Below, one piece after another: positions 3,368-35,178 of a DNA stretch of 39,133 bases. The notes under the pieces were generated by a model. That model was not told the DNA's origin. It made no database searches and saw only the letters and a list, made by a program, of their open reading frames with translations. The stretch's first letter is position 1. Each line of letters opens with the position of its first letter. The stretch is from sequence record MZ234009.1; one strand, 5' to 3'. Both the position numbers and the translations under genes were made by a program. Source of the DNA: Escherichia phage vB_EcoP-22664BS1.

Positions 3368-5548
3368 ATGTCCACGATTACACAATTCCCTTCAGGAAAC
3401 ACTCAGTACAGGATAGAGTTCGACTACCTAGCCAGAACGTTTGTTGTTGTTACGCTGGTGAATAGCTCTAACCCTACCCTGAACCGTGTACTGGAAGTTG
3501 GTCGAGATTACCGATTCCTTAATCCAACGATGATTGAGATGTTGGCTGACCAATCAGGTTTCGACATCGTTCGTATTCACCGTCAGACTGGAACTGACTT
3601 AGTGGTAGACTTCAGGAATGGCTCAGTGTTGACAGCTAGTGACCTGACCAATTCAGAGCTTCAGGCTATCCATATTGCAGAAGAAGGTCGAGACCAAACG
3701 GTTGACTTAGCGAAGGAATATGCCGATGCTGCTGGTAGCTCTGCTGGCAACGCTAAGGATAGCGAGGACGAAGCACGCCGAATCGCTGCGAGTATCAAGG
3801 CAGCTGGTAAAATTGGCTATATTACCCGTCGCTCCTTCGAGAAAGGCTTCAACGTTACAACAGGGAACGAGGTCCTGCTATGGGAAGAGGATGGTGCTTA
3901 TTACCGCTGGGATGGTACGCTTCCAAAGAACGTTCCCGCTGGTTCAACTCCTGAATCATCTGGTGGTATTGGGCTGAGTGCGTGGGTTAGTGTTGGTGAT
4001 GCGTCACTTAGAGCAAACCTGGCTGATAGTGATGGCGCTAAATACATAGGCAGTGGAGAAAGGACATTACTTGAGCACAACAATGATGTTTTGCACTCAA
4101 AAGACTTTCCAACACTGCAGGCAGCTATAGATGCATCTTTGCAAAAAAATGATCTACTGGTGTCTCCTGGCAATTATACTGAAAAAGTTACTATTGGAAA
4201 CGCGCAATTAAAAGGTGTTGGCGGGGCCACGGTACTAAAAACTCCGGCAGACTTTACAAACACTGTTCAGGTTAATTTAGCTACACCTCATTGGCAATTC
4301 CGCCATAGTGGTGGTTTTGCTATAGATGGTTCCGGGACAACCGGGGCCGTAGGTATTAGTTTTGACCCGTCAGACCAATATTCCGGACGTCATAATTTTA
4401 GTGATGTATACATCCACAACATCAACAAGGCCATTCAGAAGCCTTCCGGGAACATCGGCAATACTTGGAGAAATATTGGGATATCTACGTGTGATTGGGG
4501 GTATTACGCGATTAGTGGCTCAGAGATGCATTGCGGGGCCGATACCCTCTACAATATCCACTTCGATGGCATCTCCACCTATGCAGTCTATCTAGACGGC
4601 ACTGTCGATAATGGCGGGGGGGGCGCATGGTGGCTTAAAGACTCCATTATTGAGGCTTCCGGAGGTGGCGGGATATACTTAAAAAGTAAATCGGGCGACT
4701 GTCCTACATCTCCATGCGGGGTATCCAATATATGGATGGAAGCGATCGCAACATCACCGGCTGTTCAGGTAGACGGCGTGGCGCAAAAACCGCGAGTTCT
4801 CAAGTTGGTAGACACAGCGATATTCTTTGCTGAGTATTCTTATCTCAACAACATCGAGCTATCCAACTCCAACTTAGTAACTTATGGTTGCCGTTTTGAC
4901 AACGCTGATGGCAATCAGGATATTGTCGTGGATGCACAAAGTACCATTGTAGCCCATGACGTGTATTTAAACGGCAGTTCTGGAAAGGACGTTATTGTGG
5001 AGTCCGTAGCATCGCAATCTGCAACGATAGCTGCCACAAACTTATCTCTGAGGGGCAACTTAACAAGAGGGAGAGTATTTAATACGCCGACAGGGAATAA
5101 ATTAATGGCTATCACATTTGACTCAGGTAGCCATAATTTTTCTGGCAGCGGCACCGTTAACGGTTCGACTGTATCTGACGGACTTCACGCCGCTACATGT
5201 ACCGAATTTTCATTCCCCGGAGCCGGTTTATATGAAATGGTAGCGACAAGAACAACCATTACATCCGGTAGATGGTACGTGTGGGGAGTTAACTCACGCC
5301 TACAATCTGGCTCGGCGGATATTAGTATAACGTCAGGTATTACCATGGGTAGTGTTTACACAAAGCCGGGGGAGTGGATTAGCACTTTCGGTGTAGGAAA
5401 GGCATCTACCACTGGCACTGTAGCGCTATACGTTTCCACAGGAGGAGGTTCGGGAGCTACGGTCAGATTCAGTGACTTTTTCATCGCTGAGTTTACGACG
5501 CAAGCTCAGGCTTTAGCTTTCGCCAATTCAAGGATGTCGTTATCATAA
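3368..5548 (+). CDS. 17: Tail fibre / tailspike (gp17): T7-like N-terminal anchor domain plus non-T7 C-terminal beta-helix-like domain
   Basis: RBS aaggagg before ATG; N-terminal about 150 aa closely match T7 gp17 (MSTITQFPSGNTQYRIEFDYL...FLNP...); C-terminal about 570 aa Gly/Ser/Asn/Thr-rich with repetitive short strands. Confidence 0.85.
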   Translation: MSTITQFPSGNTQYRIEFDYLARTFVVVTLVNSSNPTLNRVLEVGRDYRFLNPTMIEMLADQSGFDIVRIHRQTGTDLVVDFRNGSVLTASDLTNSELQAIHIAEEGRDQTVDLAKEYADAAGSSAGNAKDSEDEARRIAASIKAAGKIGYITRRSFEKGFNVTTGNEVLLWEEDGAYYRWDGTLPKNVPAGSTPESSGGIGLSAWVSVGDASLRANLADSDGAKYIGSGERTLLEHNNDVLHSKDFPTLQAAIDASLQKNDLLVSPGNYTEKVTIGNAQLKGVGGATVLKTPADFTNTVQVNLATPHWQFRHSGGFAIDGSGTTGAVGISFDPSDQYSGRHNFSDVYIHNINKAIQKPSGNIGNTWRNIGISTCDWGYYAISGSEMHCGADTLYNIHFDGISTYAVYLDGTVDNGGGGAWWLKDSIIEASGGGGIYLKSKSGDCPTSPCGVSNIWMEAIATSPAVQVDGVAQKPRVLKLVDTAIFFAEYSYLNNIELSNSNLVTYGCRFDNADGNQDIVVDAQSTIVAHDVYLNGSSGKDVIVESVASQSATIAATNLSLRGNLTRGRVFNTPTGNKLMAITFDSGSHNFSGSGTVNGSTVSDGLHAATCTEFSFPGAGLYEMVATRTTITSGRWYVWGVNSRLQSGSADISITSGITMGSVYTKPGEWISTFGVGKASTTGTVALYVSTGGGSGATVRFSDFFIAEFTTQAQALAFANSRMSLS

Positions 5549-5692
5549 AAACAACCTCAGCCGAATCGGGTTATTTATCATCAGAACGGTATTGAATCAT
5601 CGAAGGTTGTGGAGGTAGAGGCTAACTACACGTTGACCAACGTATGATAACAACTTTGGGTCACGGACGACCCGCTTTAAACTGGAGGTTTT

Positions 5693-5887
5693 ATGATTGA
5701 GTTAGACTTCAAGAATGAGGTCCTCAAAGCCTCGCCTATCGTCGGGACCGCTGCGGCTGATGGTGCCAGTCGGTTCTTCTTTGGGCTAACGCTCAACGAA
5801 TGGTTCTACGTCGCTGCTATCGCGTACACCGTGGTGCAGATTGGCGTCCTAATTTACAAGACGATTAAGAGCGGAGGTAAGACATGA
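5693..5887 (+). CDS. 17.5: Class II holin (gp17.5)
   Basis: Matches recalled T7 gp17.5 (FFGL.LNEWFYVAAIAYTVVQIG); RBS ggagg; hydrophobic segment. Confidence 0.85.
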   Translation: MIELDFKNEVLKASPIVGTAAADGASRFFFGLTLNEWFYVAAIAYTVVQIGVLIYKTIKSGGKT

Positions 5888-6147
5888 CGCAGATGGACTT
5901 AGAGAAGTTCCTGTTAATGCTGGACACAGAACGTGCTAGACTAATGCTGCAAGACCTGCGGGATGACTCTAAGCGTTCGCCCCAGCTCTACAACGCCATT
6001 GAGAAGCTACTGGCTCGTCACAACTTCGTGCTAAGCAAGGTGTCTGTTGACGAGAAGACGCTCGCTGATATGGAGGCCCTGAACGCAGAGTACGATAAGG
6101 TGCTCTCCGCTACGGAAGATAATGACACTGGGTATGGAGTGCAGTAA
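5884..6147 (+). CDS. 18: Terminase small subunit (gp18)
   Basis: ATGA overlap with holin stop; similarity to T7 gp18 (RSPQLYNAI.KLL.RH.F); synteny. Confidence 0.85.
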   Translation: MTQMDLEKFLLMLDTERARLMLQDLRDDSKRSPQLYNAIEKLLARHNFVLSKVSVDEKTLADMEALNAEYDKVLSATEDNDTGYGVQ

Positions 6148-6257: not shown

Positions 6258-6707
6258 ATGCTCGAATTTTTAAAGAGAGCGGCTCCGTGGTTACTTGCAG
6301 CAGTGATGTTTGCTGGTGGCTACCACACCGCTAACAATAAGTGGGGGGCTAAGGTCAATGCAGAATACACCTCGAATCTTAAGGCATCGGAAGATACAAG
6401 GCTTGCTGTCCAAGCTGAAGTCAACAAAGTGTCCAAACGGTTTCAGGACGAAATGTCCTCGCTGGAAGGCAGCACTGATAGGATTATTGCTGACCTTCAG
6501 TCTGACAATAAGCGGTTGCGCATCCGAGTCAAACCAACGAGTGGAACCACGCAAAGTGACGGTCGATGCTTCATTGATGGTTACGCCGAACTTGACGAAC
6601 GAGATGCTAAACGTCTTATCGCCATCGGAGTGAAAGGAGACAAGTGGATTAAGGCCCTTCAAGACACTGTGAGAGCCTTACAGCAAGAGAAGGAGGTGAC
6701 GCATTGA
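6258..6707 (+). CDS. 18.5: i-spanin (gp18.5, Rz-like)
   Basis: Similarity to T7 gp18.5 (MLEFL...DRIISDLRSDNKRLR.RVK); N-terminal TM segment. Confidence 0.85.
6358..6633 (+). CDS. 18.7: o-spanin (gp18.7, Rz1-like lipoprotein) embedded in +1 frame inside gp18.5; start codon uncertain (6310 or 6358)
   Basis: Embedded ORF with lipobox-like LTISGC and similarity to T7 gp18.7 (PRWKGALIGL...ISGCASES...SLMV.PNLT.EMLNV). Confidence 0.6.
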   Translation: MQNTPRILRHRKIQGLLSKLKSTKCPNGFRTKCPRWKAALIGLLLTFSLTISGCASESNQRVEPRKVTVDASLMVTPNLTNEMLNVLSPSE

Positions 6708-8467
6708 GTAAAGACTTAGTGGCGCGTCAGGCGCTAATGACTGCACGTATGAAGTCAGACTTCGTGTTCTTCCTGTTCGTCCTGTGGAAAGCTCTGTCGC
6801 TCCCAGTCCCTACTCGCTGTCAGATTGACATGGCGAAGAAACTATCGGCTGGGGACAACAGGCGCTTCATCCTACAGGCGTTCCGTGGTATAGGGAAGTC
6901 CTTCATTACGTGTGCCTTCGTTGTCTGGAAGCTATGGAACAACCCAGACTTGAAGTTCATGATTGTGTCGGCCTCAAAGGAACGAGCCGATGCTAACTCC
7001 ATCTTCATCAAGCGAATCATCGACCTCATGCCTCAGCTTCAGGAACTCAAACCTAAGCAGGGTCAGCGAGATGCGGTTATCAGCTTCGACGTTGGACCGG
7101 CTAAGCCAGACCACTCACCTTCGGTTAAGTCCGTTGGTATCACTGGTCAGTTGACTGGTAGTCGTGCTGACATCCTGATTGCCGATGACGTGGAGGTTCC
7201 GAACAACTCAGCGACTCAGGCTGCACGAGACCGTCTATCAGAGCTTGTGAAAGAGTTCGACGCTATCCTGAAGCCGGGAGGTACGATCATCTATCTGGGT
7301 ACTCCTCAGAACGAGATGACACTGTATCGTGAGCTGGAAGGTCGTGGGTACACCACTACTATCTGGCCCGCTCGTTATCCACGCGACAGGAAGGACTGGC
7401 AGTCTTACGGTGACCGTCTGGCACCGATGCTTCAGGTAGAGCTTGAAGAGGACCCTGAGTCCTTCTACTGGCGTCCGACTGATGAAGTACGCTTCGATGA
7501 TACGGACCTGAAGGAGCGTGAGCTGTCCTACGGTAAAGCTGGCTTCGCTCTACAGTTCATGCTTAACCCGAACCTGAGTGATGCTGAGAAGTATCCTCTT
7601 AAGCTCCGTGACCTTATCGTAGCCGACTTGGACCCAGCGTCCAGCCCAATGGTCTACCAATGGTTGCCAAACCCTCAGAACAAGCGTGAGGACGTTCCTA
7701 ACGTGGGACTCATGGGTGACTCGTACCACACGTATCAGACTGTAGGTTCTGCCTTCAGCTCATACACCCAGAAGATTCTGGTCATTGACCCTAGTGGTCG
7801 TGGTAAGGATGAAACTGGTTATGCGGTACTGTATCAGCTCAACGGCTACATCTTCGCTATGGAAGTAGGTGGTATGCGTGGTGGCTATGAAGACTCTACT
7901 CTGGAAGCACTGGCTAAGATTGGTCGTAAGTGGAAGGTCAACGAATACGTCATTGAGGGTAACTTCGGTGATGGTATGTACCTTGAGCTATTCAAGCCTG
8001 TAGCGGCCCGTATCCATCCTGCTGCTGTAACCGAAGTGAAGAGTAAGGGTCAGAAAGAACTCCGCATCTGTGACGTTCTTGAGCCTATCATGGGGTCTCA
8101 CCGACTTATCGTCAACGCTGCTGCTATCGTCCAAGACTATCAGACAGCCTCTGACAAGGATGGTGTTCGTAACCCTATCTACTCTCTCTTCTACCAGATG
8201 ACACGTATCTCTCGTGAACGTGGAGCCTTGGCACACGATGACCGACTTGATGCGCTGGCTATAGGTGTACAGTTCTTCGTTGAGTCTATGGCTAAGGATG
8301 CCAACAAGGGAGAACGTGAAGTCACTGAGGAGTGGCTGGAGGAACAGATGGAGAACCCACGGAAAGGCTTCGAGTCCATCCACACTGAGTTCTGGGACAA
8401 TGGGGTCCGGGTAACTCACAATACGGACGACGAGCTTGGACTAGGGTCATACGTTACGTTCCACTAG
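6704..8467 (+). CDS. 19: Terminase large subunit (gp19), probable TTG start
   Basis: Strong colinear similarity to T7 gp19 ([21 protein letters not shown]...[18 protein letters not shown]...); RBS aaggagg 6 nt before TTG. Confidence 0.95.
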
Positions 8468-8476
8468 CTGAATGAA

Positions 8477-8513
8477 TAACTATAGGTGAAAGCTGCATGA
8501 ATAAGCAGGTAGT
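8477..8513 (+). other. Perfect 10-bp inverted repeat (aactataggt / acctatagtt) forming a potential hairpin just downstream of gene 19
   Basis: Read directly from sequence; no downstream U-tract. Confidence 0.4.
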
Positions 8514-8561
8514 AACCTATAGTTACTACCAGTCTAACATACTGTTTTACAAGGAGTTTGG

Positions 8562-8584
8562 ACTTAACTATCACTATAGGGAAG
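8562..8584 (+). promoter_or_regulatory. Phage RNAP promoter near right genome end (phiOR-like)
   Basis: acttaactatcactatagggaag matches promoter family. Confidence 0.65.
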
Positions 8585-8764
8585 ACCCCCGGTTACTTAT
8601 AGTATTACTGTAGTGAATATACATATGCAGACTTTATGCAAGACCTTAGGAGGCAGACTCCGAGTTATTACCTAAGGCTTGCACCGATGGAAGGAGGGTG
8701 ATATTAATCATAATCCCTCCAATACAGATAGTCACCGACCATAGATACAGGAGGTATGTAGCAT

Positions 8765-8923
8765 ATGGCAAAGACCAAAGCTGTACTTAAAGCTCTGGCG
8801 ACCAATCGAGCTACATACAGGTTTCTTGCTGCTGTTCTACTTGCTGCTGGCGTTACTGCTGGAAGTCAGTGGGTCGGGTGGGTCGAGACTCTCGTATGTA
8901 CTCTGGTCTCTCAGTGTAATTAA
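8765..8923 (+). CDS. Small hydrophobic protein (52 aa), gene 19.5 position
   Basis: ATG preceded by aggagg; ORF below the 60-aa track cutoff, translated by hand (MAKTKAVLKALATNRATYRFLAAVLLAAGVTAGSQWVGWVETLVCTLVSQCN). Confidence 0.4.
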   Translation: MAKTKAVLKALATNRATYRFLAAVLLAAGVTAGSQWVGWVETLVCTLVSQCN

Positions 8924-9085
8924 CGCAATCATGGTAACGATTCATGAGCGGAAGACCTAAGGTCAGTACGTGGATAAAGACTCACTATACTGACCTTAGC
9001 TACTGTAGTCAAGGACTTTAGGTAACACCTTAAGAGAAGCTCACTTAGGGTCATCCTACTTATTGGTCTATCCTAGTGTCGCCTG

Positions 9086-9130
9086 ACCTACGGTCCTTGA
9101 CCTACAGTGGCTGTGGCCTACAGTAGTGAC
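9086..9130 (+). repeat. Short direct repeats (cctacRgt x3) at inferred right genome end
   Basis: cctacggt...cctacagt...cctacagt seen in sequence. Confidence 0.5.
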
Positions 9131-9163
9131 GATGAGTTTTGGACCAAAAGTTTGAGACCACAT

Positions 9164-9350
9164 CTCACACTTCAAGAACCTCAAGTCTCCCCATAGGTCC
9201 TCTTTAAGTCCAGACCAAAGGCCCTACCACAGTCTATCATAAGGTTAGACCGATGGTCCAGACTTCAGGTCAACGATAGGTCTAGGCTATGGCTTAGGGA
9301 AGGACGATAGGTTGGGACTATGGGTCTGTCTTTGAGTCTCTATCTGTATC
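9164..9350 (+). repeat. Approximate terminal repeat / genome-end region (single collapsed copy); boundaries estimated
   Basis: tctcacacttcaagaacctcaagtctccccatagg resembles the T7 left end (TCTCACAGTGTACGGACCTAAAGTTCCCCCATAGG); followed by gtctgtctttgagtctctatctgt like the end of the T7 terminal repeat. Confidence 0.45.
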
Positions 9351-9351
9351 A

Positions 9352-9452
9352 GACCTTGAGTCACTACCTACAGTCTAACTACCTACAGTCTAACTACCTA
9401 CAGTCATCGACCATCGGTAATGCCGCTACCTACAGTCATCGACCTACAGTTA
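9352..9452 (+). repeat. Array of short direct repeats (ctaactacctacagt; at least 5 copies of cctacagt) inside the left end
   Basis: Seen directly; analogous position to the CCTAAAG repeat array next to the T7 terminal repeat. Confidence 0.6.
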
Positions 9453-9561
9453 ATAGACACAAGGCTATAGACTTAAGGTCTAAGACATGTTAGTCAAAGA
9501 CTATATCCTCTTACACCATGGGGCCGACGATAGCTTAATCAATATTATTTCGAATTACCTA

Positions 9562-9590
9562 TTGACTATAGGTCCAGACTATGGCCTAAT
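9562..9590 (+). promoter_or_regulatory. Candidate host sigma70 early promoter (A1-like): TTGACT, 17-bp spacer, CCTAAT
   Basis: -35 perfect, -10 weak; position about 400 bp from inferred left end. Confidence 0.3.
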
Positions 9591-9701
9591 AGCTTCCGTC
9601 AACACGACACGGCAACAACCGGATAGTGAAGACGCCGGTCCGGTCCGGTTAAGTAGTCAGCCTGTAAGACATACGAACAACAGGCAACCGACAGAAAGTA
9701 G

Positions 9702-9731
9702 TTGACAAGCAGTAACGATAAGATGTAAGAT
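9702..9731 (+). promoter_or_regulatory. Candidate host sigma70 early promoter (A3-like): TTGACA, 18-bp spacer, TAAGAT
   Basis: Strong resemblance to recalled T7 A3 promoter region including downstream gtaccacat and ctctttaacaatctgg. Confidence 0.55.
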
Positions 9732-9850
9732 GTACCACATCGAAACAACGGTGAGTCCCAACACTGAAACGGGATAGCACGGCGACGACAGCCAACGCGA
9801 ATGCTCTTTAACAATCTGGATAAACTCTTAATGTGCGCCGATAGCGACTA

Positions 9851-9902
9851 ACTACAGGGTCTTTGAGTCTACATCTGAAGGCCCTGACTGATAGTCACTA
9901 AC
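9851..9902 (+). promoter_or_regulatory. Early-region conserved element (actacagg...ggcctgactgatagtcactaac), putative RNase III processing site
   Basis: One of four related copies, each preceding an early gene. Confidence 0.35.
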
Positions 9903-9909
9903 TTAAAGG

Positions 9910-10164
9910 ATGGACACTATGAAACACTTAAGCACAATCACTAATCGCAATGAAGTATTCGTGAACACTAAAGGTTATGCGTGGATTCAGCTTAAAGAGA
10001 TGACAGGAGCGCGTCACCGTGTGGTAGTGCGCAAGGTATCAAGCAAGCAGTTCAGCAACTACAGCGTCGATACTGTGCGTATAGACAACGAGACATACCT
10101 GATAGACTCGCAGATAACCGTGAGTCCTACAGTGGGCGTCTCAGCTCCTTATTTCGCTAACTGA
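9910..10164 (+). CDS. Early protein, unknown function (84 aa)
   Basis: ORF track; RBS aaggatgg; first gene after host promoters. Confidence 0.5.
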   Translation: MDTMKHLSTITNRNEVFVNTKGYAWIQLKEMTGARHRVVVRKVSSKQFSNYSVDTVRIDNETYLIDSQITVSPTVGVSAPYFAN

Positions 10165-10903: not shown

Positions 10904-10947
10904 ACTACAGGTCATCAATGCTGGTGGCCTGACTGATAGTCATTAAC
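10904..10947 (+). promoter_or_regulatory. Early-region conserved element, copy 3
   Basis: actacaggtcatcaatgctggtggcctgactgatagtcattaac. Confidence 0.35.
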
Positions 10948-10963
10948 AACTGAGAGGGAAGAT

Positions 10964-11191
10964 ATGAACACAATCACTGGTGCCATAACCAAAGGTTTTC
11001 GAGCAATTTTCGGTGAAACGCAAGAAGTATGCACCAATCATAAATTCGTACTTTCTTGCGTAGCAGGTGACGAGTTTGACGGGTTCGATAAACTGGTGGT
11101 TTGCGACCATTGCGGACAAGAGGCTATCCAACACTCAAACGGTAAATTTGAATTAATAGACGATAGCCTTACAGAAGGAGACGGCGAGTAA
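10964..11191 (+). CDS. Early small protein with four Cys (C-x8-C...C-x2-C), putative zinc ribbon
   Basis: ORF track; RBS gagggaag; cysteine pattern in translation. Confidence 0.5.
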   Translation: MNTITGAITKGFRAIFGETQEVCTNHKFVLSCVAGDEFDGFDKLVVCDHCGQEAIQHSNGKFELIDDSLTEGDGE

Positions 11192-11323
11192 CCTAAATAA
11201 ACAGGAGAGAACCAAATCATAGCTTGACCATAACACTGACGTGATGGTACTGAGTGATAGACGAGAGGTCATCGACTGATAGGTGGCCTCAAAGATTACC
11301 ACTTACATTGATAGGAGTTAACT

Positions 11324-12051: not shown

Positions 12052-14733
12052 ATGAGCGTCATCTCTATTGACAAGCACGACTTCTCTGATGTGTCGAACG
12101 CCATTGAGCCGTTTAACCTACTGGCTGACCACTACGGGCAAGACCTTGCAGTCAAACAGCTTCAGCTTGAGCACGAGGCATACACTGAAGGCGAGCGACG
12201 TTTCATCAAGAACCTTGAGCGCCAGACCGAGCGCGGGGAACTGGCAGACAATCAGGTAGCCAAGCCTCTTATGCAGACTCTTGTTCCTAAGATTGTGCAA
12301 GCCGTCAAGGAGTGGCACGAAGGTCCAGACGGGAAGCTGTCAACCTCTCGTCCGAGCGTAGCGTTCACCATGTTGAGCACTGAAGAGAAGGCCGTAAAGG
12401 ACCGCTCTTTGCGCATCTCCTGCGAATCTGCTGCGGTTATCATACTGAAGGTCATACTCTCCAAGCTGATCAAGCCTGAAGGGATACCGATTACACCGAT
12501 GGCATCCGCGATAGGGCGCACACTTGAGGACGAAATCCGCTTCGGTCGCATCCGTGACAAGGAGAAAGAGCACTTCAAGAAGGCGATAGCTGATAACCTG
12601 AATAAGCGGGCCGGGGCGTCCTACAAGAAAGCCTACATGCAAGCGGTCGAGGCATCCATGCTGGAGCAAGGCCAACTGGAAGATGCGTGGGGGACTTGGA
12701 GTCCTACAGAGGCTGTCCACGTTGGCGTCAAGATGCTTGAGATTGTCATCCAGTCAACACAACTGGTAGAGCTTAAGCGGTACGGTGCTGGCAATGCAGC
12801 GGCTGACGTTGAGATGGTCCACCTGTCAGACTTCTGGGTCAAGAAGATGGCACAACGAGGATTCAGCCTTGCGGGTATCGCTCCAGTCTACCAGCCTTGC
12901 GTCGTTCCACCTAAGCCGTGGACCGGTGTCGTAGGAGGTGGGTACTGGGCCAAAGGACGCAGACCACTGCCACTGATTCGCTTAGGGTCTAAGTCTGCGG
13001 TGGCACGTTACGAAGACGTGTACATGCCTGAAGTCTATGACGCTGTGAATATCATCCAGAATACACCTTGGAAAGTGAACAAGAAGGTTCTGGACGTGGT
13101 GAACATGGTCGAGAAGCTGAACAACACGCCTATTGATGACATCCCTCAGATGGAACCGCTGAAGCCTGAGGACTATGCGGGTGAGACTGAAGAAGAACTC
13201 AAGGCATGGAAGAAGGCTGCTGCTGGTATCTATCGCCGCGAGAAGGCCAGACAGTCACGAAGATTGTCACTGAGCTTTATCGTCAACCAAGCGAACAAGT
13301 TCTCTCAGTTCAAGGCCATCTGGTTCCCGTATAACATGGACTGGCGTGGGCGCGTCTACGCTGTTCCGATGTTCAACCCTCAGGGTAACGACATGCAGAA
13401 GGGTCTTCTGACTCTGGCAGTCGGTAAGCCTATTGGTGCTGATGGTTTCAAATGGCTGAAGGTCCACGGTGCAAACTGCGCGGGTGTCGATAAAGTCACC
13501 TTCGAGGAGCGTATCAAGTGGGTGGAAGATAACCACGACAACATCATGGCTGCTGCTAAGGCGCCGATGGATAGTATTGAGTGGTGGGGCAAGTTAGACT
13601 CTCCGTTCTGCTTCCTAGCGTTCTGCTTCGAGTATGCTGGCGTAATGCACCACGGCTTGTCTTACTCCTGCTCGCTGCCGATAGCGTTCGATGGGTCCTG
13701 CTCTGGGATTCAGCACTTCAGCGCTATGCTTCGCGACCACATCGGTGGACATGCAGTAAACCTGACGCCATCCGGTAAGGTCCAAGACATCTACCGAATC
13801 GTGTCTGACCGCATTGAGGAGGAGCTTAAAGTCCTACTGGTTAACGGTACGGACAACGAGATGGTAACTCACGAGGACAAGAAAACTGGTGAGATTACCG
13901 AGCGTCTCAAGCTGGGGACACGAGAGCTTGCCAGTCAGTGGCTTACCTACGGTATGTCACGAAAGGTCACTAAGCGTTCGGTCATGACTCTGGCCTACGG
14001 GTCGAAAGAGTACGGCTTCGCAGACCAAGTTTACGAGGACATCGTGATGCCAGCGATTGACTCAGGGTCTGGCGCTATGTTCACTGAACCAAGCCAAGCA
14101 TCTCGCTTCATGGCTAAGATGATTTGGGAAGCTGTGAGTGTGACCGTAGTTGCTGCGGTTGACGCGATGAAATGGCTTCAGGGTGCTGCCAAGCTGCTTG
14201 CTGCTGAAGTGAAGGACAAGAAGACTGGAGAAATCCTGAAGCCTTGTCTTCCGGTACACTGGGTCACACCTGATGGTTTCCCTGTCTGGCAGGAATACCG
14301 CAAGAAGGACACCACTCGTCTGAACCTGATGTTCTTAGGGTCATTCAACCTTCAGCCTACCGTCAACAAAGGCACGAAGAAAGAGCTGGACAAGCACAAG
14401 CAGGAGTCAGGCATTAGCCCGAACTTCGTCCACTCACAAGATGGTAGCCACCTCCGCAAGACTGTAGTCCACACGCATCGCAAGTACGGCGTGATGTCAT
14501 TCGCAGTGATTCACGATAGCTTCGGGACCATCCCGGCTGACGCTGAGTATCTGTTCCGTGGAGTCCGTGAGACGATGGTCGAGACCTACCGCGACAACGA
14601 TGTGCTGCTTGACTTCTACGAGCAGTTTGAATACCAGCTTCACGAGAGCCAGAGAGACAAGTTGCCTGAGCTTCCGAAGAAAGGTAAACTGAATATCGAA
14701 GACATCTTGTCTTCAGACTTTGCATTCGCTTAA
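12052..14733 (+). CDS. 1: Single-subunit DNA-directed RNA polymerase (gp1)
   Basis: Extensive colinear identity to T7 RNAP (FNLLADHYG, PCVVPPKPWTG, WFPYNMDWRGRVYAV, DGSCSGIQHFSAML, HDSFGT, C-terminal DFAFA). Confidence 0.97.
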   Translation: MSVISIDKHDFSDVSNAIEPFNLLADHYGQDLAVKQLQLEHEAYTEGERRFIKNLERQTERGELADNQVAKPLMQTLVPKIVQAVKEWHEGPDGKLSTSRPSVAFTMLSTEEKAVKDRSLRISCESAAVIILKVILSKLIKPEGIPITPMASAIGRTLEDEIRFGRIRDKEKEHFKKAIADNLNKRAGASYKKAYMQAVEASMLEQGQLEDAWGTWSPTEAVHVGVKMLEIVIQSTQLVELKRYGAGNAAADVEMVHLSDFWVKKMAQRGFSLAGIAPVYQPCVVPPKPWTGVVGGGYWAKGRRPLPLIRLGSKSAVARYEDVYMPEVYDAVNIIQNTPWKVNKKVLDVVNMVEKLNNTPIDDIPQMEPLKPEDYAGETEEELKAWKKAAAGIYRREKARQSRRLSLSFIVNQANKFSQFKAIWFPYNMDWRGRVYAVPMFNPQGNDMQKGLLTLAVGKPIGADGFKWLKVHGANCAGVDKVTFEERIKWVEDNHDNIMAAAKAPMDSIEWWGKLDSPFCFLAFCFEYAGVMHHGLSYSCSLPIAFDGSCSGIQHFSAMLRDHIGGHAVNLTPSGKVQDIYRIVSDRIEEELKVLLVNGTDNEMVTHEDKKTGEITERLKLGTRELASQWLTYGMSRKVTKRSVMTLAYGSKEYGFADQVYEDIVMPAIDSGSGAMFTEPSQASRFMAKMIWEAVSVTVVAAVDAMKWLQGAAKLLAAEVKDKKTGEILKPCLPVHWVTPDGFPVWQEYRKKDTTRLNLMFLGSFNLQPTVNKGTKKELDKHKQESGISPNFVHSQDGSHLRKTVVHTHRKYGVMSFAVIHDSFGTIPADAEYLFRGVRETMVETYRDNDVLLDFYEQFEYQLHESQRDKLPELPKKGKLNIEDILSSDFAFA

Positions 14734-14748
14734 CAACAGGAGAAGTAT

Positions 14749-14979
14749 ATGTCAATGAAACTTGTAGCACACAACAGGGTATTCAACGATGGGTCGGGAC
14801 GTTGCCATGTAGAGCTGACTTATAAGGATTTAATCATTCTCCGAGACAGATTACAGTCGGGTGTGACTGGGTGGATTCAACCTAACGAGTACAACCTTAT
14901 AGCTTCGATTGATGAAGTTCTTAACGCGTGGATGGAAGACGAGCGCATTCAGTATCCGTCATTCCCTCTAATTAGATAA
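14749..14979 (+). CDS. Hypothetical protein (76 aa)
   Basis: ORF track; RBS aggaga. Confidence 0.5.
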   Translation: MSMKLVAHNRVFNDGSGRCHVELTYKDLIILRDRLQSGVTGWIQPNEYNLIASIDEVLNAWMEDERIQYPSFPLIR

Positions 14980-14989
14980 GGAGAGAGTT

Positions 14990-15205
14990 ATGAAATTTGC
15001 ACACAAGCATACTGGCGTTAATGGTGGGACTCAAATCGTGACCGTAACAGAACACAACGGCAAGGGTCTGGTGAAGACCACGGTCATCCCTACCGAGATG
15101 TCCAAGCAGCTTAACATCCCGTTCAAGACTCTTGTATATCTGGTCGAGTCCAGCCACGAGAAGTACCTGAAGGACGCAGTGTCCAAGCTGGAGCAGGCCA
15201 AATGA
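14990..15205 (+). CDS. Hypothetical protein (71 aa)
   Basis: ORF track; RBS aaggagag. Confidence 0.5.
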   Translation: MKFAHKHTGVNGGTQIVTVTEHNGKGLVKTTVIPTEMSKQLNIPFKTLVYLVESSHEKYLKDAVSKLEQAK

Positions 15206-15280
15206 CAGACATACAGTTACTGGCCCTGTGGCTGGGAGCACTCGCAGTATTCACTTTAATCCAACGCAGAAGAGGTTAAC

Positions 15281-15303
15281 CCTAAACTATCACTATAGGC
15301 TTA
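15281..15303 (+). promoter_or_regulatory. Phage RNAP promoter (phi1.1-like)
   Basis: cctaaactatcactataggc. Confidence 0.65.
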
Positions 15304-15345
15304 GACTCAAGGTCATGACTCAAAGTCGTGGCCTTCATGATTAAC
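15301..15345 (+). promoter_or_regulatory. Conserved hairpin element (RNase III-like, R1.1 position)
   Basis: ttagactcaaggtcatgactcaaagtcgtggccttcatgatta. Confidence 0.45.
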
Positions 15346-15376
15346 CCTAAATAAACACTACTGGAGATTTAACCGT

Positions 15377-15556
15377 ATGTATCAGAACACTATCAACTTC
15401 GAGCGCATCCGTGAACGTCAGCAGACTGAAGGTTACATCCCTAAGGGCCGCAAGCTGAACAAGACTAAACGTGGCGGTGGTATCAAAGGCGCTTTCAGAA
15501 ACGCTGAAGGTAAAGACTCTCTGGTCAACCAAGAGAAATACTTCGTAGGAGCATAA
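15377..15556 (+). CDS. 1.1: gp1.1-like small basic protein (59 aa)
   Basis: Hand-translated; KGRKLNKTKR motif as in T7 gp1.1; RBS ggag. Confidence 0.6.
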   Translation: MYQNTINFERIRERQQTEGYIPKGRKLNKTKRGGGIKGAFRNAEGKDSLVNQEKYFVGA

Positions 15557-15824: not shown

Positions 15825-16912
15825 TGACAACTATCAAAACTAACCCTCACCGCGCTGTAGATTACTCTGAGTCTGGAATTAAGAAGGCACTGGAATCAGC
15901 CGGGTCTCTGGAAGCTGAAGTGAAGTACGATGGTGTGCGCCTGAACCTCCTGGTCCTGCGTGAAGGTGAGACCTACTGGCTTAGCCGCGAGTCGAAACCT
16001 CTACCAGCCTTGGAGTGGATGAACTCTGAGTTAGGTAATGCGTGGACCCAAGCTGACTGGCGATGGTTCCTGCGTCAATCCGGCTACGAAGGTGTGGGCA
16101 TGATGATTGATGGCGAGGTCATGGTCAAAGGTGTAGACTTCAACACCTCCTCAGGTCTCATCCGAACGAAGTGGCTCAAGCCTAACAACGAGGAGTTCGC
16201 TGAATACTATTCGCCGGCGACTGGTGGAAAGAAGCTCCCGTTCTGGGGATCCCGGTCACGACTTCAGGTTGTGGTATATGGCGTTGTCGATATGACAACC
16301 ATAGCAGACCCGAAAGCAGAAGGTCCTATCCATAGCGTAACCCGCCTGAAGGCTGAAGCTATCGTCCCTCTCCTCCAGAAATACTTCCCGGAAATCGACT
16401 GGGTTCTGTCTGAGTCACACACGGTCTATGACCTTGAGTCGCTCAACTCCCTGTACGAACAGAAGCGTCTGGAAGGACATGAGGGTCTGGTAGTCAAGGA
16501 CCCACTGGGTAAGTACAAGCGTGGCAAGAAGTCTGGCATGTGGAAAATGAAGCCTGAGGAGACCATCGACGGGACCGTGTGTGGCCTCGTGTGGGGGACT
16601 CCTGGTAAGGCTAACGAAGGTAAGGTCATCGGCTTTGAGGTTCTACTGGAGGATGGCATGGTGGTCAACGCCTGTGGTCTGACTGAAGAACAGAAGGACG
16701 AGTTTACGGCTAAGGTAAAGGAGGACACGCTTGCTGCGGTTGGCATCTTTGCGCCGTACGGCATTGGTGGTAACGAACCTTGCTTCGATAACCCATACGA
16801 AGGCTGGCAGTGTGAAGTCCTCTTCATGGAGAGGTTCCCTGATGGCTCCCTTCGTCACCCCAGCTTCAAGTGCTGGCGTGGAACCGAAGACAACCCAACG
16901 GTGAAGTCATGA
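15809..16912 (+). CDS. 1.3: ATP-dependent DNA ligase (gp1.3)
   Basis: KYDGVR adenylation motif; EGHEGLVVKDP...YKRGKKSG.WKMKPE; LRHPSF; colinear with T7 ligase. Confidence 0.95.
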   Translation: MEQRIMTTIKTNPHRAVDYSESGIKKALESAGSLEAEVKYDGVRLNLLVLREGETYWLSRESKPLPALEWMNSELGNAWTQADWRWFLRQSGYEGVGMMIDGEVMVKGVDFNTSSGLIRTKWLKPNNEEFAEYYSPATGGKKLPFWGSRSRLQVVVYGVVDMTTIADPKAEGPIHSVTRLKAEAIVPLLQKYFPEIDWVLSESHTVYDLESLNSLYEQKRLEGHEGLVVKDPLGKYKRGKKSGMWKMKPEETIDGTVCGLVWGTPGKANEGKVIGFEVLLEDGMVVNACGLTEEQKDEFTAKVKEDTLAAVGIFAPYGIGGNEPCFDNPYEGWQCEVLFMERFPDGSLRHPSFKCWRGTEDNPTVKS

Positions 16913-17088
16913 GTACACAACTTTATATCAACATAGCAAGTGGTCAACTCTACGCTGTGGTAAATGGCGAGCTGTGGTATCGTAAACTCAAGAAGTGGGC
17001 CAAGTCCTACTACGATGCAGAGACAATATCAACCATGAGTCATCGCTACCGTAAGGCTGCTAAGGTGAACAACTTTAAGATGCGTTAA
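16909..17088 (+). CDS. Hypothetical small protein (59 aa)
   Basis: ATGA overlap with ligase stop; in frame with track ORF 16870..17088. Confidence 0.45.
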   Translation: MSTQLYINIASGQLYAVVNGELWYRKLKKWAKSYYDAETISTMSHRYRKAAKVNNFKMR

Positions 17089-17196: not shown

Positions 17197-17451
17197 ATGT
17201 CTAAAAACTTAATGTTCAACCGATTTACTCGAAGCTTCCACCTGTCGCATAGCCCATTCAGCTTCCATAAAGCTAATCAACCATTACCCCGCTTTGGTAA
17301 GACAGTGGCTCTGTCTCCCACAGTTCATGCGCTAGTCACCCGCAAGTCTATGCTGAAGGCTATGGATAAAGAACAAGTCGATGTACCTGTGGTCGTTACA
17401 AAATGGCCTAGCATTAAGCTGGCCCTTCTGGTAATTAAGGAGGTGTTTTGA
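17197..17451 (+). CDS. gp1.6-like protein
   Basis: ORF track; C-terminus LLVIKEVF resembles recalled T7 gp1.6 C-terminus; RBS aaaggaga. Confidence 0.5.
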   Translation: MSKNLMFNRFTRSFHLSHSPFSFHKANQPLPRFGKTVALSPTVHALVTRKSMLKAMDKEQVDVPVVVTKWPSIKLALLVIKEVF

Positions 17452-17789
17452 TGGCATATTGTGATAGCACCACATACTGTGAAGCATGTAATGGTGATGA
17501 CCGCTTCCCACACGTTGGTAAACTTGTAGGTAACAAGCTGCAAGAAATTGATGGTGTACGCAAGCCATCTCACTATCAGGTCTTTGACGGCGTGGAGTCC
17601 ATTGAGATTATCGCTCGGTCCATGACTGTCAGTGAGTTCCGTGGCTTCTGCATGGGTAACGTCCTTAAGTATCGACTCCGGGCTGGTAAGAAGTCAGAGC
17701 TGGCGACTATGGAGAAGGACCTGAACAAAGCAGCCTTCTATCAGGAGCTGTTCGACCTACATAAAGGTAAGTGCTATGCTTCCGAGTGA
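17448..17789 (+). CDS. gp1.7-like protein (possible truncated nucleotide kinase homolog)
   Basis: Synteny; LKYRLRAGKK resembles T7 gp1.7 C-terminal region; shorter than the T7 protein. Confidence 0.45.
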   Translation: MMAYCDSTTYCEACNGDDRFPHVGKLVGNKLQEIDGVRKPSHYQVFDGVESIEIIARSMTVSEFRGFCMGNVLKYRLRAGKKSELATMEKDLNKAAFYQELFDLHKGKCYASE

Positions 17790-17871
17790 GTGGTGCGAGC
17801 GTAAATTTGAGGAGACAGGTAACGTCGATTACCTTCAGCTCTACAACTTATGGAAGGAGCGTGGTCTATGA
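17776..17871 (+). CDS. Small ORF (31 aa), gene 1.8 position
   Basis: Hand-translated [31 protein letters not shown]; stop overlaps gene 2 start. Confidence 0.3.
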
Positions 17872-22583: not shown

Positions 22584-24755
22584 ATGTTTGACCTTAAGAG
22601 TATCTGGGGTTCTGACATCGAGACCAACGGTCTCCTTGATACAGTCTCCCAGTTTCACTGTGGGGTCCTGATTAACGCCGAGTCGAATGAGACCCTTAAG
22701 TATGGGGTAGCTCCGATGGTCGGTATCGTCGGCGGCTTCAAAGAGTATGTTCATAAAGTGGAAGAGATTGCCGCATCACCTGATGGTATGCTGGTATTCC
22801 ATAACGGTATCAACTATGACGTCCCGGCTATAGACAAGCTGAAGCGTTTGTACTTTGGGAAACGCTTTAACTTCCCGAAACATAAGATGATTGATACCTT
22901 GGTGCTGGGACGCTTGATGTATCCAAACATTAAGTTCTCAGACATGGGCGCGGTGAAAGCTGGTCGTCTGCCACCTAAGATGATGGGACGCCAGTCTCTT
23001 GAGGCTTGGGGCTATCGTCTCGGTGAGATGAAAGGTGAGTACAAACACGATTACGTTGCCAAGTGCAAGGCTGAAGGTATCGAATATAAGGCTGGGGACG
23101 AATGGTTGTTCCCGTCTCAGGAGATGCTGGACTATAACGTTCAAGACGTTGTGGTCACACTGGCGTTGTTCAAGAAGTTCCTGACTGACAAGTATTACTT
23201 CCAGTCTGAACAGTTCGCTTTCGACCAGATTTATGCGTTGCGTCTGGAACATGATGCTGCGTGGACCTGTGCGAAGATGGAGCGTAACGGCTATCCGATG
23301 AACACCGAGATGGTCGAAGGCTTATATCGTGAACTCACTGTCAAACGTGCAGAGTTGCTGGACAAGCTGCGTTCGACTTTCGGTAGCTGGTACGCACCAA
23401 AGGGAGGCAAGGAGTTCTTCAGGCATCCACGGACAGGTAAGGACCTTCCGAAGTATCCGAGGGTCGTGTATCCTAAGGTCGGTGGCATCTTTAAGAAGCC
23501 GAAGAACAAAGCTCAACGCTTAGGTCTTGAACCTTGTGAACGCGATACGCGAGACACGATGGAAGGAGCACCATTCACGCCAATCACTTACGTTGAGTTT
23601 AATCCGGGAAGCGGAGACCACTTAGCGAAAGTCCTGATGGAGCGTGGCTGGGAGCCTGTTGACTTCACTGACACCGGGAAACCTGTAGTCGATGACGAGA
23701 CGTTGGAACACGTTAAGTTACCAGACGCAGAGGCTCAGGCTTGCGTAGAGCTGGTCCGTGAGTATCTGGTAGTCCAGAAGCGCATCGGTCAGGCTGCTGA
23801 AGGTAAGAACGCATGGTTGAAACTTGTAGGTCCAGACGGACGTATGCACGGCTCAATAAACCCATGCGGGGCAGTAACCGGACGTGCGACCCATAGTTCA
23901 CCAAACATGGCTCAGGTCCCGGCTAACGGTGCTCCATATGGTGAGACTTGCCGTGGTGCTTTCGGTGCAGCGTGGAACAAGAAGGACGGTAAGCCAGACC
24001 CTTGGATTCAAGTTGGTGTGGATGCATCAGGTCTTGAGCTTCGTTGTCTTGGGAACAGAGCGGCTCCGTTTGATGGTGGTGCATATGCGAAGACTGTGGT
24101 AGAAGGTGACATCCACTGGGCCAACGCAGTAAACGCTGGGTTAGCACCTAACGTCCAACGCGATAAGTCTAACCACGACCATGAGGCTTTCCGTAACAAC
24201 GCTAAGACGTTCATCTACGCGTTCCTGTATGGTGCAGGGGCCGCTAAGATTGGACTGATAGTAGGCGGTGGTAAGAAGGAAGGTTCAGCGCTCATGAAGA
24301 AATTCATTGAGGGTACACCAGCTATCAAGGACCTCAGGGAAGCTGTAAGTAATACGTTAATCTCAGACTCTAAGTGGGTGGACGGAGAGAACATCGTTAA
24401 ATGGAAACGTCGCTGGCTGAAAGGTCTGGATGGTCGTCGTATTCACATCCGGTCTCCACACTCAGCACTTAACGCCCTACTTCAGGGGGACGGTGCGGTT
24501 GTCTGTAAGCACTGGATGGTACTGACTGAGAAGAAACTTGAAGAGGCTGGTTACGGTAACGGATGGGACGGCGACTTTGCGCTAATGGCTTGGATTCACG
24601 ATGAATTGCAGATAGCGTGCCGTACTCAGGAGATAGCAGAAGATGTCGTCCGTATTGCTCAAGAGGCGATGCGCGAGGTCGGACGCTTCTATAACTTCAA
24701 GTGTGAACTTGATACGGAGGGTAAGATTGGACCAACGTGGAAAGAGTGTCATTGA
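22584..24755 (+). CDS. 5: DNA polymerase (gp5, family A with 3'-5' exonuclease)
   Basis: 723 aa; colinear with T7 gp5 (exo motif MFDLKSIWGSDIETNGL at N-terminus, polymerase motifs downstream). Confidence 0.97.
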   Translation: MFDLKSIWGSDIETNGLLDTVSQFHCGVLINAESNETLKYGVAPMVGIVGGFKEYVHKVEEIAASPDGMLVFHNGINYDVPAIDKLKRLYFGKRFNFPKHKMIDTLVLGRLMYPNIKFSDMGAVKAGRLPPKMMGRQSLEAWGYRLGEMKGEYKHDYVAKCKAEGIEYKAGDEWLFPSQEMLDYNVQDVVVTLALFKKFLTDKYYFQSEQFAFDQIYALRLEHDAAWTCAKMERNGYPMNTEMVEGLYRELTVKRAELLDKLRSTFGSWYAPKGGKEFFRHPRTGKDLPKYPRVVYPKVGGIFKKPKNKAQRLGLEPCERDTRDTMEGAPFTPITYVEFNPGSGDHLAKVLMERGWEPVDFTDTGKPVVDDETLEHVKLPDAEAQACVELVREYLVVQKRIGQAAEGKNAWLKLVGPDGRMHGSINPCGAVTGRATHSSPNMAQVPANGAPYGETCRGAFGAAWNKKDGKPDPWIQVGVDASGLELRCLGNRAAPFDGGAYAKTVVEGDIHWANAVNAGLAPNVQRDKSNHDHEAFRNNAKTFIYAFLYGAGAAKIGLIVGGGKKEGSALMKKFIEGTPAIKDLREAVSNTLISDSKWVDGENIVKWKRRWLKGLDGRRIHIRSPHSALNALLQGDGAVVCKHWMVLTEKKLEEAGYGNGWDGDFALMAWIHDELQIACRTQEIAEDVVRIAQEAMREVGRFYNFKCELDTEGKIGPTWKECH

Positions 24756-24786
24756 CCCTCGAACCCAGACCCTACGCTTCCACACC

Positions 24787-25068
24787 ATGCCTACCGGATG
24801 TATCGTCTGCGTGTCCCACAAGAGGAACCAAGATGGGTACTTCCGGTACTCCATGGGAAGCTACAGGAAGGGCAACAAGTTCGCCTTCATGTTCCACCGA
24901 TGGGTGTGGGAGCAGAAGCGCGGACCTATACCAAATGGCTACGAAATAGACCATTTGTGCTTGAACCGTGGGTGCTGCAACATAGAGCATCTACAGTGTA
25001 TTCCAAAACGCGAACACGTCATTAAGACGAACCGTGAGCGCAAACTTGTTAAGAAGGAGTGTCACTAA
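24787..25068 (+). CDS. HNH homing-endonuclease-like protein; start uncertain (ORF open from 24643, overlapping the polymerase 3' end)
   Basis: Cys/His pattern C..C..HKRN...H...N....H plus C..CC..EH; track ORF 24643..25068. Confidence 0.6.
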   Translation: MPTGCIVCVSHKRNQDGYFRYSMGSYRKGNKFAFMFHRWVWEQKRGPIPNGYEIDHLCLNRGCCNIEHLQCIPKREHVIKTNRERKLVKKECH

Positions 25069-25352
25069 TGGCTATTACTAAACGTATTCGTGTGAGTTTT
25101 GATCTGAAGATGGTTGTTAACTCAAAGGAAGAAGATACCATGTGTCGCCAACTGGCCGAGATGACTAAAGCCTACGCTGAGGGTGAGAAGCTGGATGGTC
25201 TTCAGTTGGCTATGGTCAAAACCGCAATCGAGTCAGGCCCTGAGTCTGCCCTTGAAATTGCCCTCAAGAAGACCATCAAGGATGAGCTGGTAGACGACTT
25301 TGGTTATGGCCAGTTCGGAGTATCTAACCTGCGATTCGAGGTCAAGCAATGA
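25068..25352 (+). CDS. 5.5: gp5.5-like protein
   Basis: MAITKRIRVSFDL resembles T7 gp5.5 N-terminus; RBS gaaggag 8 nt upstream; TAATG overlap. Confidence 0.65.
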   Translation: MAITKRIRVSFDLKMVVNSKEEDTMCRQLAEMTKAYAEGEKLDGLQLAMVKTAIESGPESALEIALKKTIKDELVDDFGYGQFGVSNLRFEVKQ

Positions 25353-30498: not shown

Positions 30499-31548
30499 AT
30501 GGCAAACGTTCCGGGTCAGAAAGTTGGTACAGACCAAGGTAAAGGCAAATCTGGTTCCGACGCTCTGGCGTTGTTCCTGAAGGTCTTTGCTGGCGAAGTC
30601 CTGACAGCATTCACTCGCCGCTCTGTAACTGCTGACAAGCATATTGTCCGTACCATTCAGAACGGTAAGTCTGCTCAGTTCCCGGTCATGGGTCGCACCT
30701 CTGGTGTGTATCTGGCTCCGGGTGAGCGACTGTCCGATAAGCGTAAAGGTATCAAACATACCGAGAAAGTGATTACCATTGATGGTCTGCTGACTGCCGA
30801 TGTGATGATTTTCGACATTGAAGACGCGATGAACCACTATGACGTGGCTGGCGAGTACTCCAACCAGTTGGGCGAAGCTCTGGCTATCGCTGCCGATGGT
30901 GCGGTACTGGCTGAGATGGCTATTCTGTGTAACCTACCGGCTGCATCTGATGAAAACATCGCTGGTCTTGGCAAAGCGTCTGTGCTGAAAGTTGGTACTA
31001 AAGCAGACCTGAACACTCCGGCTAAGCTGGGTGAAGCAATCATCGGTCAACTGACCATTGCTCGTGCGAAGCTGACATCCAACTACGTTCCTGCTGGCGA
31101 CCGTTACTTCTACACCACGCCGGACAACTACTCTGCAATCCTCGCGGCTCTGATGCCGAACGCTGCTAACTATGCTGCGCTGATTGACCCAGAGACTGGT
31201 AACATCCGTAACGTAATGGGCTTCGTGGTTGTTGAAGTTCCACACTTGACTCAGGGTGGTGCTGGGGAAACTCGTGGTGCCGATGGTATCACTATTGCGA
31301 CTGGTCAGAAGCACGCCTTCCCAGCTACTGCTACTGGTGATGTTAAAGTTGCTCTGGACAACGTTGTGGGCCTGTTCTCTCACCGTTCTGCTGTAGGTAC
31401 TGTTAAGCTGCGTGACTTGGCGCTGGAACGTGACCGTGACGTCGATGCTCAGGGCGACCTGATTGTTGGTAAGTACGCTATGGGTCACGGTGGTCTGCGT
31501 CCAGAAGCAGCAGGCGCACTGGTTTTCACAGCGGCGTCAGCGGGTTAA
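30499..31548 (+). CDS. 10: Major capsid protein (gp10A)
   Basis: Near-identity with T7 gp10A over long stretches (KHTEKVITIDGLLTADV, ALMPNAANYAALIDPE, HRSAVGTVKLRDLALER, YAMGHGGLRPEAAGA). Confidence 0.97.
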   Translation: MANVPGQKVGTDQGKGKSGSDALALFLKVFAGEVLTAFTRRSVTADKHIVRTIQNGKSAQFPVMGRTSGVYLAPGERLSDKRKGIKHTEKVITIDGLLTADVMIFDIEDAMNHYDVAGEYSNQLGEALAIAADGAVLAEMAILCNLPAASDENIAGLGKASVLKVGTKADLNTPAKLGEAIIGQLTIARAKLTSNYVPAGDRYFYTTPDNYSAILAALMPNAANYAALIDPETGNIRNVMGFVVVEVPHLTQGGAGETRGADGITIATGQKHAFPATATGDVKVALDNVVGLFSHRSAVGTVKLRDLALERDRDVDAQGDLIVGKYAMGHGGLRPEAAGALVFTAASAG

Positions 31549-31811
31549 CGACCCTTAAGGCCCTCTCTACAGAGGGTCCTACCTTAGAGACGTATAGTTC
31601 TACGGTGGGAACCAGCCTGAAGGTTGACTTCCCTGAGCTTTCAGATGTGACCGATTGGTCGCTGCTTGAGGTGACTACGCCTGATGGTGTTAGCTACTCC
31701 CGTAGAACCAACAGTCTCTACTTCAAGGCCACCTCTGGCGTGGAAGGTCTCGTGATTGTTGGGTATGACTGGACGCCTGTGCGTTCCTTCAACGTATCTT
31801 TCACAAACTAA
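30499..31811 (+). CDS. 10: Predicted minor capsid protein 10B made by -1 ribosomal frameshift at GGTTTTC (31521..31527), extending about 94 codons to the stop at 31809..31811
   Basis: Hand translation of 31527..31605 in the -1 frame shows no stop, and that frame continues into track ORF 31605..31811; heptamer position matches the known T7 10A/10B frameshift region. Confidence 0.55.
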
Positions 31812-35131: not shown

Positions 35132-35155
35132 CTTATTGAAGGGCCTATAGATTTA

Positions 35156-35178
35156 CCTTAACTATCACTATAGGGACT
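35156..35178 (+). promoter_or_regulatory. Phage RNAP promoter (phi13-like), embedded between the arms of a 12-bp inverted repeat (35139..35150 / 35177..35188)
   Basis: ccttaactatcactatagggact; flanking aagggcctatag / ctataggccctt. Confidence 0.65.

Follow-up and report, generated by a model that had tools for sequence, protein, structure and literature searches.

In the genome of Escherichia phage vB_EcoP-22664BS1, analysed here as one stretch of 39,133 bp (the window), a putative direct terminal repeat lies between the large terminase gene and the gene of a single-subunit RNA polymerase, and it is flanked on both sides by arrays of a short direct repeat that all read on the same strand (Table 1). 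To the left of the repeat are found a predicted phage promoter just past the large terminase gene, from which transcription would be directed to and across the junction, a perfect inverted repeat, the upstream array and a conserved unique segment. To the right, the seven-base motif ATCTGTA is followed by the downstream array. The packaging and transcription genes of the T7 type are all encoded in the window, namely gp19 with an RNase-H-like nuclease, a small gp18 and the single-subunit RNA polymerase, and Ocr is also encoded.

Table 1. Features of the putative concatemer junction and of the packaging and transcription machinery (positions of the window)
Feature	Position	Strand	Basis or remark
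gp18-type packaging protein	5884-6147		PF11123, E = 5e-12
T7-type large terminase nuclease domain	6704-8467		PF22530, E = 6e-38
Predicted phage-RNA-polymerase promoter, positional counterpart of T7 phiOR	8564-8582	+	TTAACTATCACTATAGGGA, 1 mismatch to consensus TAAACTATCACTATAGGGA
Perfect 12-bp inverted repeat, 19-nt loop	8957-8999 (arms 8957-8968 and 8988-8999)		CTAAGGTCAGTA / TACTGACCTTAG
Upstream array (right-end side)	9087-9124	+	3 CCTACRGT units, spacing 14 and 16 bp
Conserved unique segment left of the putative left-end cut site	9125-9162	+	94% conserved, 12 relatives
Putative direct terminal repeat, 179 bp, one copy in the window	9163-9341	+	Alignment to the ends of K1F, Vec13, SH3, SH4 and IMG/VR isolate records
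ATCTGTA directly 3' of the repeat	9342-9348	+	Position of the T7/T3 ATCTGTT concatemer-junction class II pause/termination site
Downstream array (left-end side)	9354-9450	+	5 exact CCTACAGT (9367, 9382, 9397, 9429, 9443) and 2 degenerate units
Single-subunit T7-type RNA polymerase	12052-14733		PF00940, E = 1e-106
Phage-polymerase promoter sites	3301, 8564, 11962, 15283, 17150, 18024, 20451, 26550, 29389, 30376, 35158	+	Consensus TAAACTATCACTATAGGGA

The window represents a whole genome of Kayfunavirus (K1F-like phages of the Studiervirinae). In a whole-genome comparison it is collinear end to end with K1F (DQ111067) at about 95% identity (mostly 88-95%), and both its nucleotide similarity and its gene order agree with those of K1F. 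The closest records are those of Kayfunavirus, which also account for most of the 233 matches of the junction region to phage records; the closest of all to this region is MZ234024.1, with 94.4% identity at identical coordinates. The last and first bases of the window are contiguous within gene 16 of K1F (K1F 29298/29299), and the window has a single copy of the 360-bp stretch around the putative repeat. The window therefore represents a complete genome with an arbitrary start and one terminal repeat, and the preliminary description, made from the letters of the window, was right to call the repeat collapsed. MZ234024.1 (region 8497-9724) has the same arbitrary opening and carries no terminal-repeat feature.

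Several differences from K1F were also observed outside the junction. In the tail-spike ORF (3368-5548), the C-terminal two thirds (window 4002-5602) are unrelated to the K1F endosialidase (K1F 33300-35904), and the N-terminal part retains the adaptor domain of the T7 tail fibre (PF03906), followed by Tail_spike_N (PF18668). This arrangement suggests a swap of the receptor-binding module and a different, probably non-K1, host specificity. At 24593-24600 the window is without an insertion of about 600 bp (K1F 14930-15535) in the DNA polymerase gene; the insertion holds a homing endonuclease, and the K1F CDS is joined from two pieces. The K1F counterpart could not be aligned, or was aligned weakly, at window 10930-11250, 14735-14981, 16666-17087, 17273-17842, 24751-25325 and 31541-31806.

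The boundaries of the repeat can be placed by comparison with relatives for which linear ends are recorded. The sequence between the arrays runs from TCTCACA at 9163 to GAGTCTCT at 9341. The linear records of K1F, Vec13, SH3 and SH4 all start at the base aligned to 9163, where the window reads TCTCACAC and conforms to TCTCAYAG at the first genome base; the left ends of T7, K1F, Vec13, SH3 and SH4 read TCTCACAG and that of T3 reads TCTCATAG. On the right, the records end at the window positions 9340 (K1F), 9341 (Vec13 and SH4) and 9345 (SH3). Direct terminal repeats are annotated in Vec13 (179 bp), SH3 (184 bp) and SH4 (191 bp), of which that of SH4 ends at the same GTCYCT position and that of SH3 ends 4 bp beyond it. 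Several IMG/VR isolate records likewise stop at GAGTCYCT plus zero to four bases. For SH3-SH5, run-off sequencing on virion DNA has established where the ends lie (PMC4925675), and a passage of the same paper credits a 179-bp repeat of K1F to Scholl and Merril (2005).

Some alignments were set aside in this comparison. The IMG/VR contigs L015, L019 and L029, which end elsewhere within or after the repeat, were rejected as physical ends and treated as assembly ends, and the IMG/VR locus L016 was excluded as an unrelated sequence with a chance 16-mer match. The register of a global alignment between T7 and the window, which moved the right end onto an internal TCTCTCTGT of T7, was also rejected, and the register of Vec13, SH4 and T3 was preferred.

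Placed by homology alone, the left physical end of vB_EcoP-22664BS1 itself should be 9163 and the right one 9341, with the terminal repeat at both ends of the virion DNA; the right boundary carries an uncertainty of 9340-9345, the span within which the related records stop. As read from these alignments, the order across the junction is the right unique end to 9162, the single repeat and the left unique end from 9342. The virion genome should accordingly measure about 39,312 bp, starting at 9163 and ending at 9341, once the second copy of the 179-bp repeat is restored. A T7-like left end had previously been noticed from about 9164, one base later than the TCTCACA start, and a resemblance to the end of the T7 repeat had been noted at about 9300-9350, a range into which 9341 falls. 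The view that exact boundaries cannot be set from one copy has to be revised, given that homology sets them at 9163 and 9341 (9340-9345), and it was the check then proposed, alignment to the ends of related phages, that yielded the coinciding ends of K1F, Vec13, SH3 and SH4.

Within the repeat, conservation among 12 relatives is 94% in the first 60 bp and 90% in the last 41 bp, and the middle is 75% conserved with indels; the repeat length in relatives ranges from 166 to 231 bp. The eighth position of the repeat (window 9170) is C, and G is found there in T7, K1F, Vec13, SH3, SH4 and 16 of the 18 related loci. The C is common to MZ234024.1 and the IMG/VR contig L014, the other 2 of the 18, which makes it a lineage variant and not an error.

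The unique segment immediately to the left of the putative left-end cut ends with TGAGACCACA before TCTCA, and the corresponding site of T7 reads CTGAGTGACTA followed by TCTCACAG. The segment contains the palindrome TTTTGGACCAAAA at 9137-9149, 14 bp left of the cut; among the 12 Kayfunavirus relatives, only L027, with changes at 2 positions, does not preserve it intact, and T7 lacks it at the corresponding position. Inverted copies, TGAGA (9152-9156) and TCTCA (9163-9167), bracket the left-end cut.

Between the large terminase gene and the junction, the phiOR-type promoter and the inverted repeat occupy positions similar to those of their T7 counterparts. Eleven sites in the window match the promoter consensus with up to 3 mismatches, all of them on the + strand and none on the - strand. 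Transcription from the site at 8564 is predicted to start at about 8579, some 584 bp left of the repeat, and T7 phiOR (39229) lies 549 bp left of the T7 repeat. A site with 5 mismatches at 8975-8993 was rejected as a promoter because it lies in the loop of the hairpin, which is replaced in half of the relatives. The inverted repeat folds as DNA with -11.5 kcal/mol (z = -3.2). Its centre is located 185 bp left of 9163. T7 likewise has an inverted repeat, with arms at 39568-39586 and 39590-39608 and the centre at 39588, at a distance of 190 bp from 39778, where the T7 repeat starts, so that the two elements correspond in position. A deletion of T7 that removes gene 19.5 together with the hairpin site has been reported as viable, and the hairpin element may thus be dispensable. 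The T7 element with its centre near 39588 is reported to be the hairpin-intermediate site of Chung, Nardone and Hinkle (1990), a reference cited in PMC4925675.

In the 12 relatives the arms of the inverted repeat are 96-100% conserved, whereas the loop, with 71% conservation, is found in two unrelated versions, which suggests selection on the arms. No covariation was found in the hairpin arms in the alignment of the 12 relatives, in which the arms are invariant, and a search of 8400-10100 with Rfam (E-value mode) returned zero matches and so did not suggest a structured RNA. At window 8941-8951, between the ORF of gene 19.5 size and the inverted repeat, K1F has about 84 extra bp (39232-39317). 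Two sigma-70-like sites that match at 10 of 12 positions were also observed, one at 9012-8984 (- strand) and one at 9702-9731 (+ strand); the leftward site and the right arm of the inverted repeat overlap. A leftward E. coli promoter, A0, is also known close to the left ends of T7 and T3, at a position unlike that of the site in the window.

Immediately to the right of the repeat, the window reads GAGTCTCT followed by ATCTGTA (9334-9348), and both T7 and T3 read GTCCCT followed by ATCTGTT. Compared with GTCYCT plus ATCTGTT, the position and six of the seven motif bases match, and the seventh base differs. None of the 12 aligned relatives departs from ATCTGTA, whereas conservation falls to 42% in the 18 bp that follow, and the motif occurs once on the + strand of the whole window. 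For T7 RNA polymerase, ATCTGTT is the class II signal, and its seven bases are described as strictly conserved; an E. coli promoter activity also resides in the T7 junction site itself (bioRxiv 10.64898/2026.02.12.705533). According to PMC3276506, the complex of polymerase and lysozyme paused at the junction interacts with gp18 and gp19 and thereby starts maturation and packaging. By analogy, ATCTGTA may be a candidate pause site for the K1F-type polymerase.

The arrays on the two sides of the repeat are built from CCTACRGT, for which the window contains 17 matches against 2.43 expected; none of 100 shuffles reached 17. Eight copies, all on the + strand, fall in 9087-9450, three upstream and five downstream of the repeat, and in these 364 bp about 0.011 + strand copies are expected (Poisson P ~6.5e-21). 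The upstream units are CCTACGGT at 9087 and CCTACAGT at 9101 and 9117. The downstream array also includes two degenerate units, CCTTGAGT at 9354 and CCATCGGT at 9411, with which it amounts to seven units 13-18 bp apart. The first three exact copies belong to a 15-nt unit, ACTACCTACAGTCTA, arranged head to tail at 9363, 9378 and 9393, of which two are exact.

The preliminary description had named three copies of cctacRgt upstream and at least five of cctacagt downstream, and both counts are confirmed here. Its ctaactacctacagt periodicity describes the first three downstream copies, that is, the 15-nt unit, and fails for the later ones, which are spaced 32 and 14 bp. It had further pointed to an analogous array beside the terminal repeat of T7, and CCTAAAG arrays do exist on both sides of that repeat; that the T7 array is implicated in concatemer processing and packaging is, however, a proposal and not a demonstrated function. 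A search of the literature collection used here found no paper testing the role of the T7 arrays. In the nomenclature of Dunn and Studier (1983), the T7 array to the right of the repeat is named SRL and that to the left SRR.

The elements follow one another as they do in T7: gene 19, a phiOR-type promoter, an ORF of gene 19.5 size, an inverted repeat, a loose array, a repeat beginning with TCTCACA, an ATCTGT motif and a regular array. The elements themselves differ. The T7 unit is CCTAAAG, with 7 bp, a 13-bp period and about 12 units, whereas that of the window is CCTACAGT, with 8 bp, a period of about 15 bp and 5-7 units; the T7 repeat measures 160 bp instead of 179 bp; and the T7 inverted repeat has imperfect 19-bp arms and a 3-nt loop, in contrast to the perfect 12-bp arms and 19-nt loop of the window. 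The CCTAAAG-type units of T7 have a spacing of about 13 bp between 175 and 332; at 39606-39734 they form a looser set, and more copies are present inside the repeat. T3 has a left end, TCTCATAGTTCAAGAACC, close to the TCTCACACTTCAAGAACC of the window, and it follows the same logic in that its repeat ends before ATCTGTT and is followed by CCTAAAG-type units. It differs in having a longer repeat (231 bp), fewer downstream units and a unit of the T7 type, not of the K1F type.

The agreement within the genus is closer. K1F (DQ111067 / AM084414) shares with the window the left end sequence except for position 8, a repeat of 178-179 bp, three upstream units of the CCTACRGT type, the ATCTGTA after the repeat and the downstream CCTACAGT array, in which it has 4 exact units and 3 CCATAAGT units instead of 5 exact ones. 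The Citrobacter phages SH3, SH4 and SH5, also of Kayfunavirus, have the same left end, right-end context and arrays, with repeats of 183-191 bp; the SH3 record extends 4 bp beyond on the right, to TCTCTATCT, and SH3 has 7 exact downstream units. As judged from these comparisons, the CCTACAGT unit with its period of about 15 bp is specific to the K1F group, and the analogy with T7 holds in architecture.

Taken as sequence comparisons, these observations make a T7-type concatemer junction a secure reading of the locus. The region is very probably the concatemer junction of a K1F-like phage, as written in a circularised assembly, with a mechanism that can be derived from that of T7. By homology with T7, replication would generate head-to-tail concatemers with one copy of the repeat per junction. 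The phage RNA polymerase could start at the phiOR-like promoter (8564) and pause at ATCTGTA (9342) just beyond the repeat, and the paused complex may then recruit the terminase (gp18 and gp19). A cut between 9341 and 9342 would produce the right end and a cut between 9162 and 9163 the left end. DNA synthesis would then copy the repeat, providing every packaged genome with it at both ends. In the least certain step, the CCTACAGT arrays, together with related degenerate units inside the repeat, may mark the junction for the maturation machinery, most likely as iterated low-specificity binding sites or architectural sites; this role is inferred, as it still is for T7.

A function for the arrays is supported by the fact that every Kayfunavirus junction examined has them to the left and to the right of the repeat, by the single orientation of all units and by the conservation of the unit cores, which exceeds that of the spacers in both the upstream (98 versus 85%) and the downstream array (82 versus 63%) of the 12 relatives. 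The junction could be correctly identified and the arrays nevertheless be without a function of their own, having arisen incidentally through slippage during replication or through unequal recombination in the non-coding DNA adjacent to the ends. The downstream array shows features to be expected of such an origin: exact copies number from 2 to 7 among close relatives, which gain or lose whole units of 15-16 bp, and part of the array in some relatives consists of a different unit, CCATARGT. To our knowledge, no protein binds the array units, and this and the variable copy number would fit tolerance or neutrality. However, slippage alone does not predict arrays on both sides in all of these phages, with another unit in T7 and T3, nor the difference between cores and spacers or the uniform orientation. 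The three upstream units, moreover, are irregularly spaced and are not simple tandem copies, yet they are nearly invariant, with 2-3 copies in every relative. Functionless arrays are thus considered unlikely, and arrays that mark the junction are preferred; the range of 2-7 copies indicates that no fixed number of units is needed.

If the arrays do mark the junction, the CCTACAGT units could be lineage-specific sites for a maturation protein, either gp18 or the paused complex of RNA polymerase, lysozyme and terminase, and the change from CCTAAAG to CCTACAGT could contribute to genus-specific processing of concatemers. This extension is doubtful, because T3 and T7 have the CCTAAAG unit in common even though each is reported to package homologous DNA specifically (PMC3276506), which argues against the unit as the determinant of specificity.

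The arrays might instead serve mainly replication or early transcription, as a secondary origin or as a binding region for host RNA polymerase at DNA entry. The left end of T7 enters the cell first, and phiOL and phiOR have been described as secondary origins; the E. coli promoter activity of the T7 junction site and the nearby sigma-70-like sites would fit such a role. The number of sigma-70-like sites in 8400-10000 (5) is, however, not clearly above that in shuffles (2.9 +/- 1.6), and, in contrast to T7 and T3, no phiOL-like promoter (up to 5 mismatches) was found after the downstream array, from the repeat as far as 11962. Since one of the two arrays is situated at the right end, which is the last to enter, such a role would also leave that right-side array unexplained. 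This makes a main role in replication or early transcription improbable compared with marking of the junction for maturation.

The region contains ORFs of 57 aa (9320-9493) and 72 aa (9487-9705), and MZ234024.1 annotates several hypothetical proteins of 30-72 aa across the junction, which raises the question of whether the region codes for small proteins and the repeats are coding repeats. A Pfam search of these two ORFs and of those at 8765-8923 and 9910-10164 gave zero matches. No genes are annotated here in K1F and Vec13, and SH3 has one hypothetical CDS of 46 aa (358-498) just past the array. Many indels and differing unit types are found among the relatives. The CDSs of MZ234024.1 across the junction, six in all, are very short and lie on both strands, and two of them would be split by the physical ends (9068-9163 and 9265-9354). 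In view of the lack of family matches, the indels and the CDSs that the physical ends would cut, the coding reading, which is highly improbable, was rejected in favour of a non-coding junction, and the calls in MZ234024.1 are probably over-predictions, that is, false calls. That the phage packages by the headful mechanism with circularly permuted ends, and that the likeness to T7 ends is relic sequence, is barely conceivable: the window does hold a single copy of the repeat and no direct sign of physical ends, but a T7-type terminase nuclease domain and a gp18-type packaging protein are encoded, the ends of relatives in the genus are mapped by run-off or recorded at exactly these positions, and conservation is strong in ATCTGTA as well as in the two end sequences.

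As a T7-type concatemer junction, the locus belongs to an already described architecture of a known phage genus and adds one more instance in the T7 group. Its practical value lies in the correction of the linear genome form and of the annotation, for which the record should be re-opened at 9163. In addition, the differences that characterize the K1F group, the CCTACAGT unit and ATCTGTA in place of ATCTGTT, may offer natural variants for studying the function of T7-type arrays.
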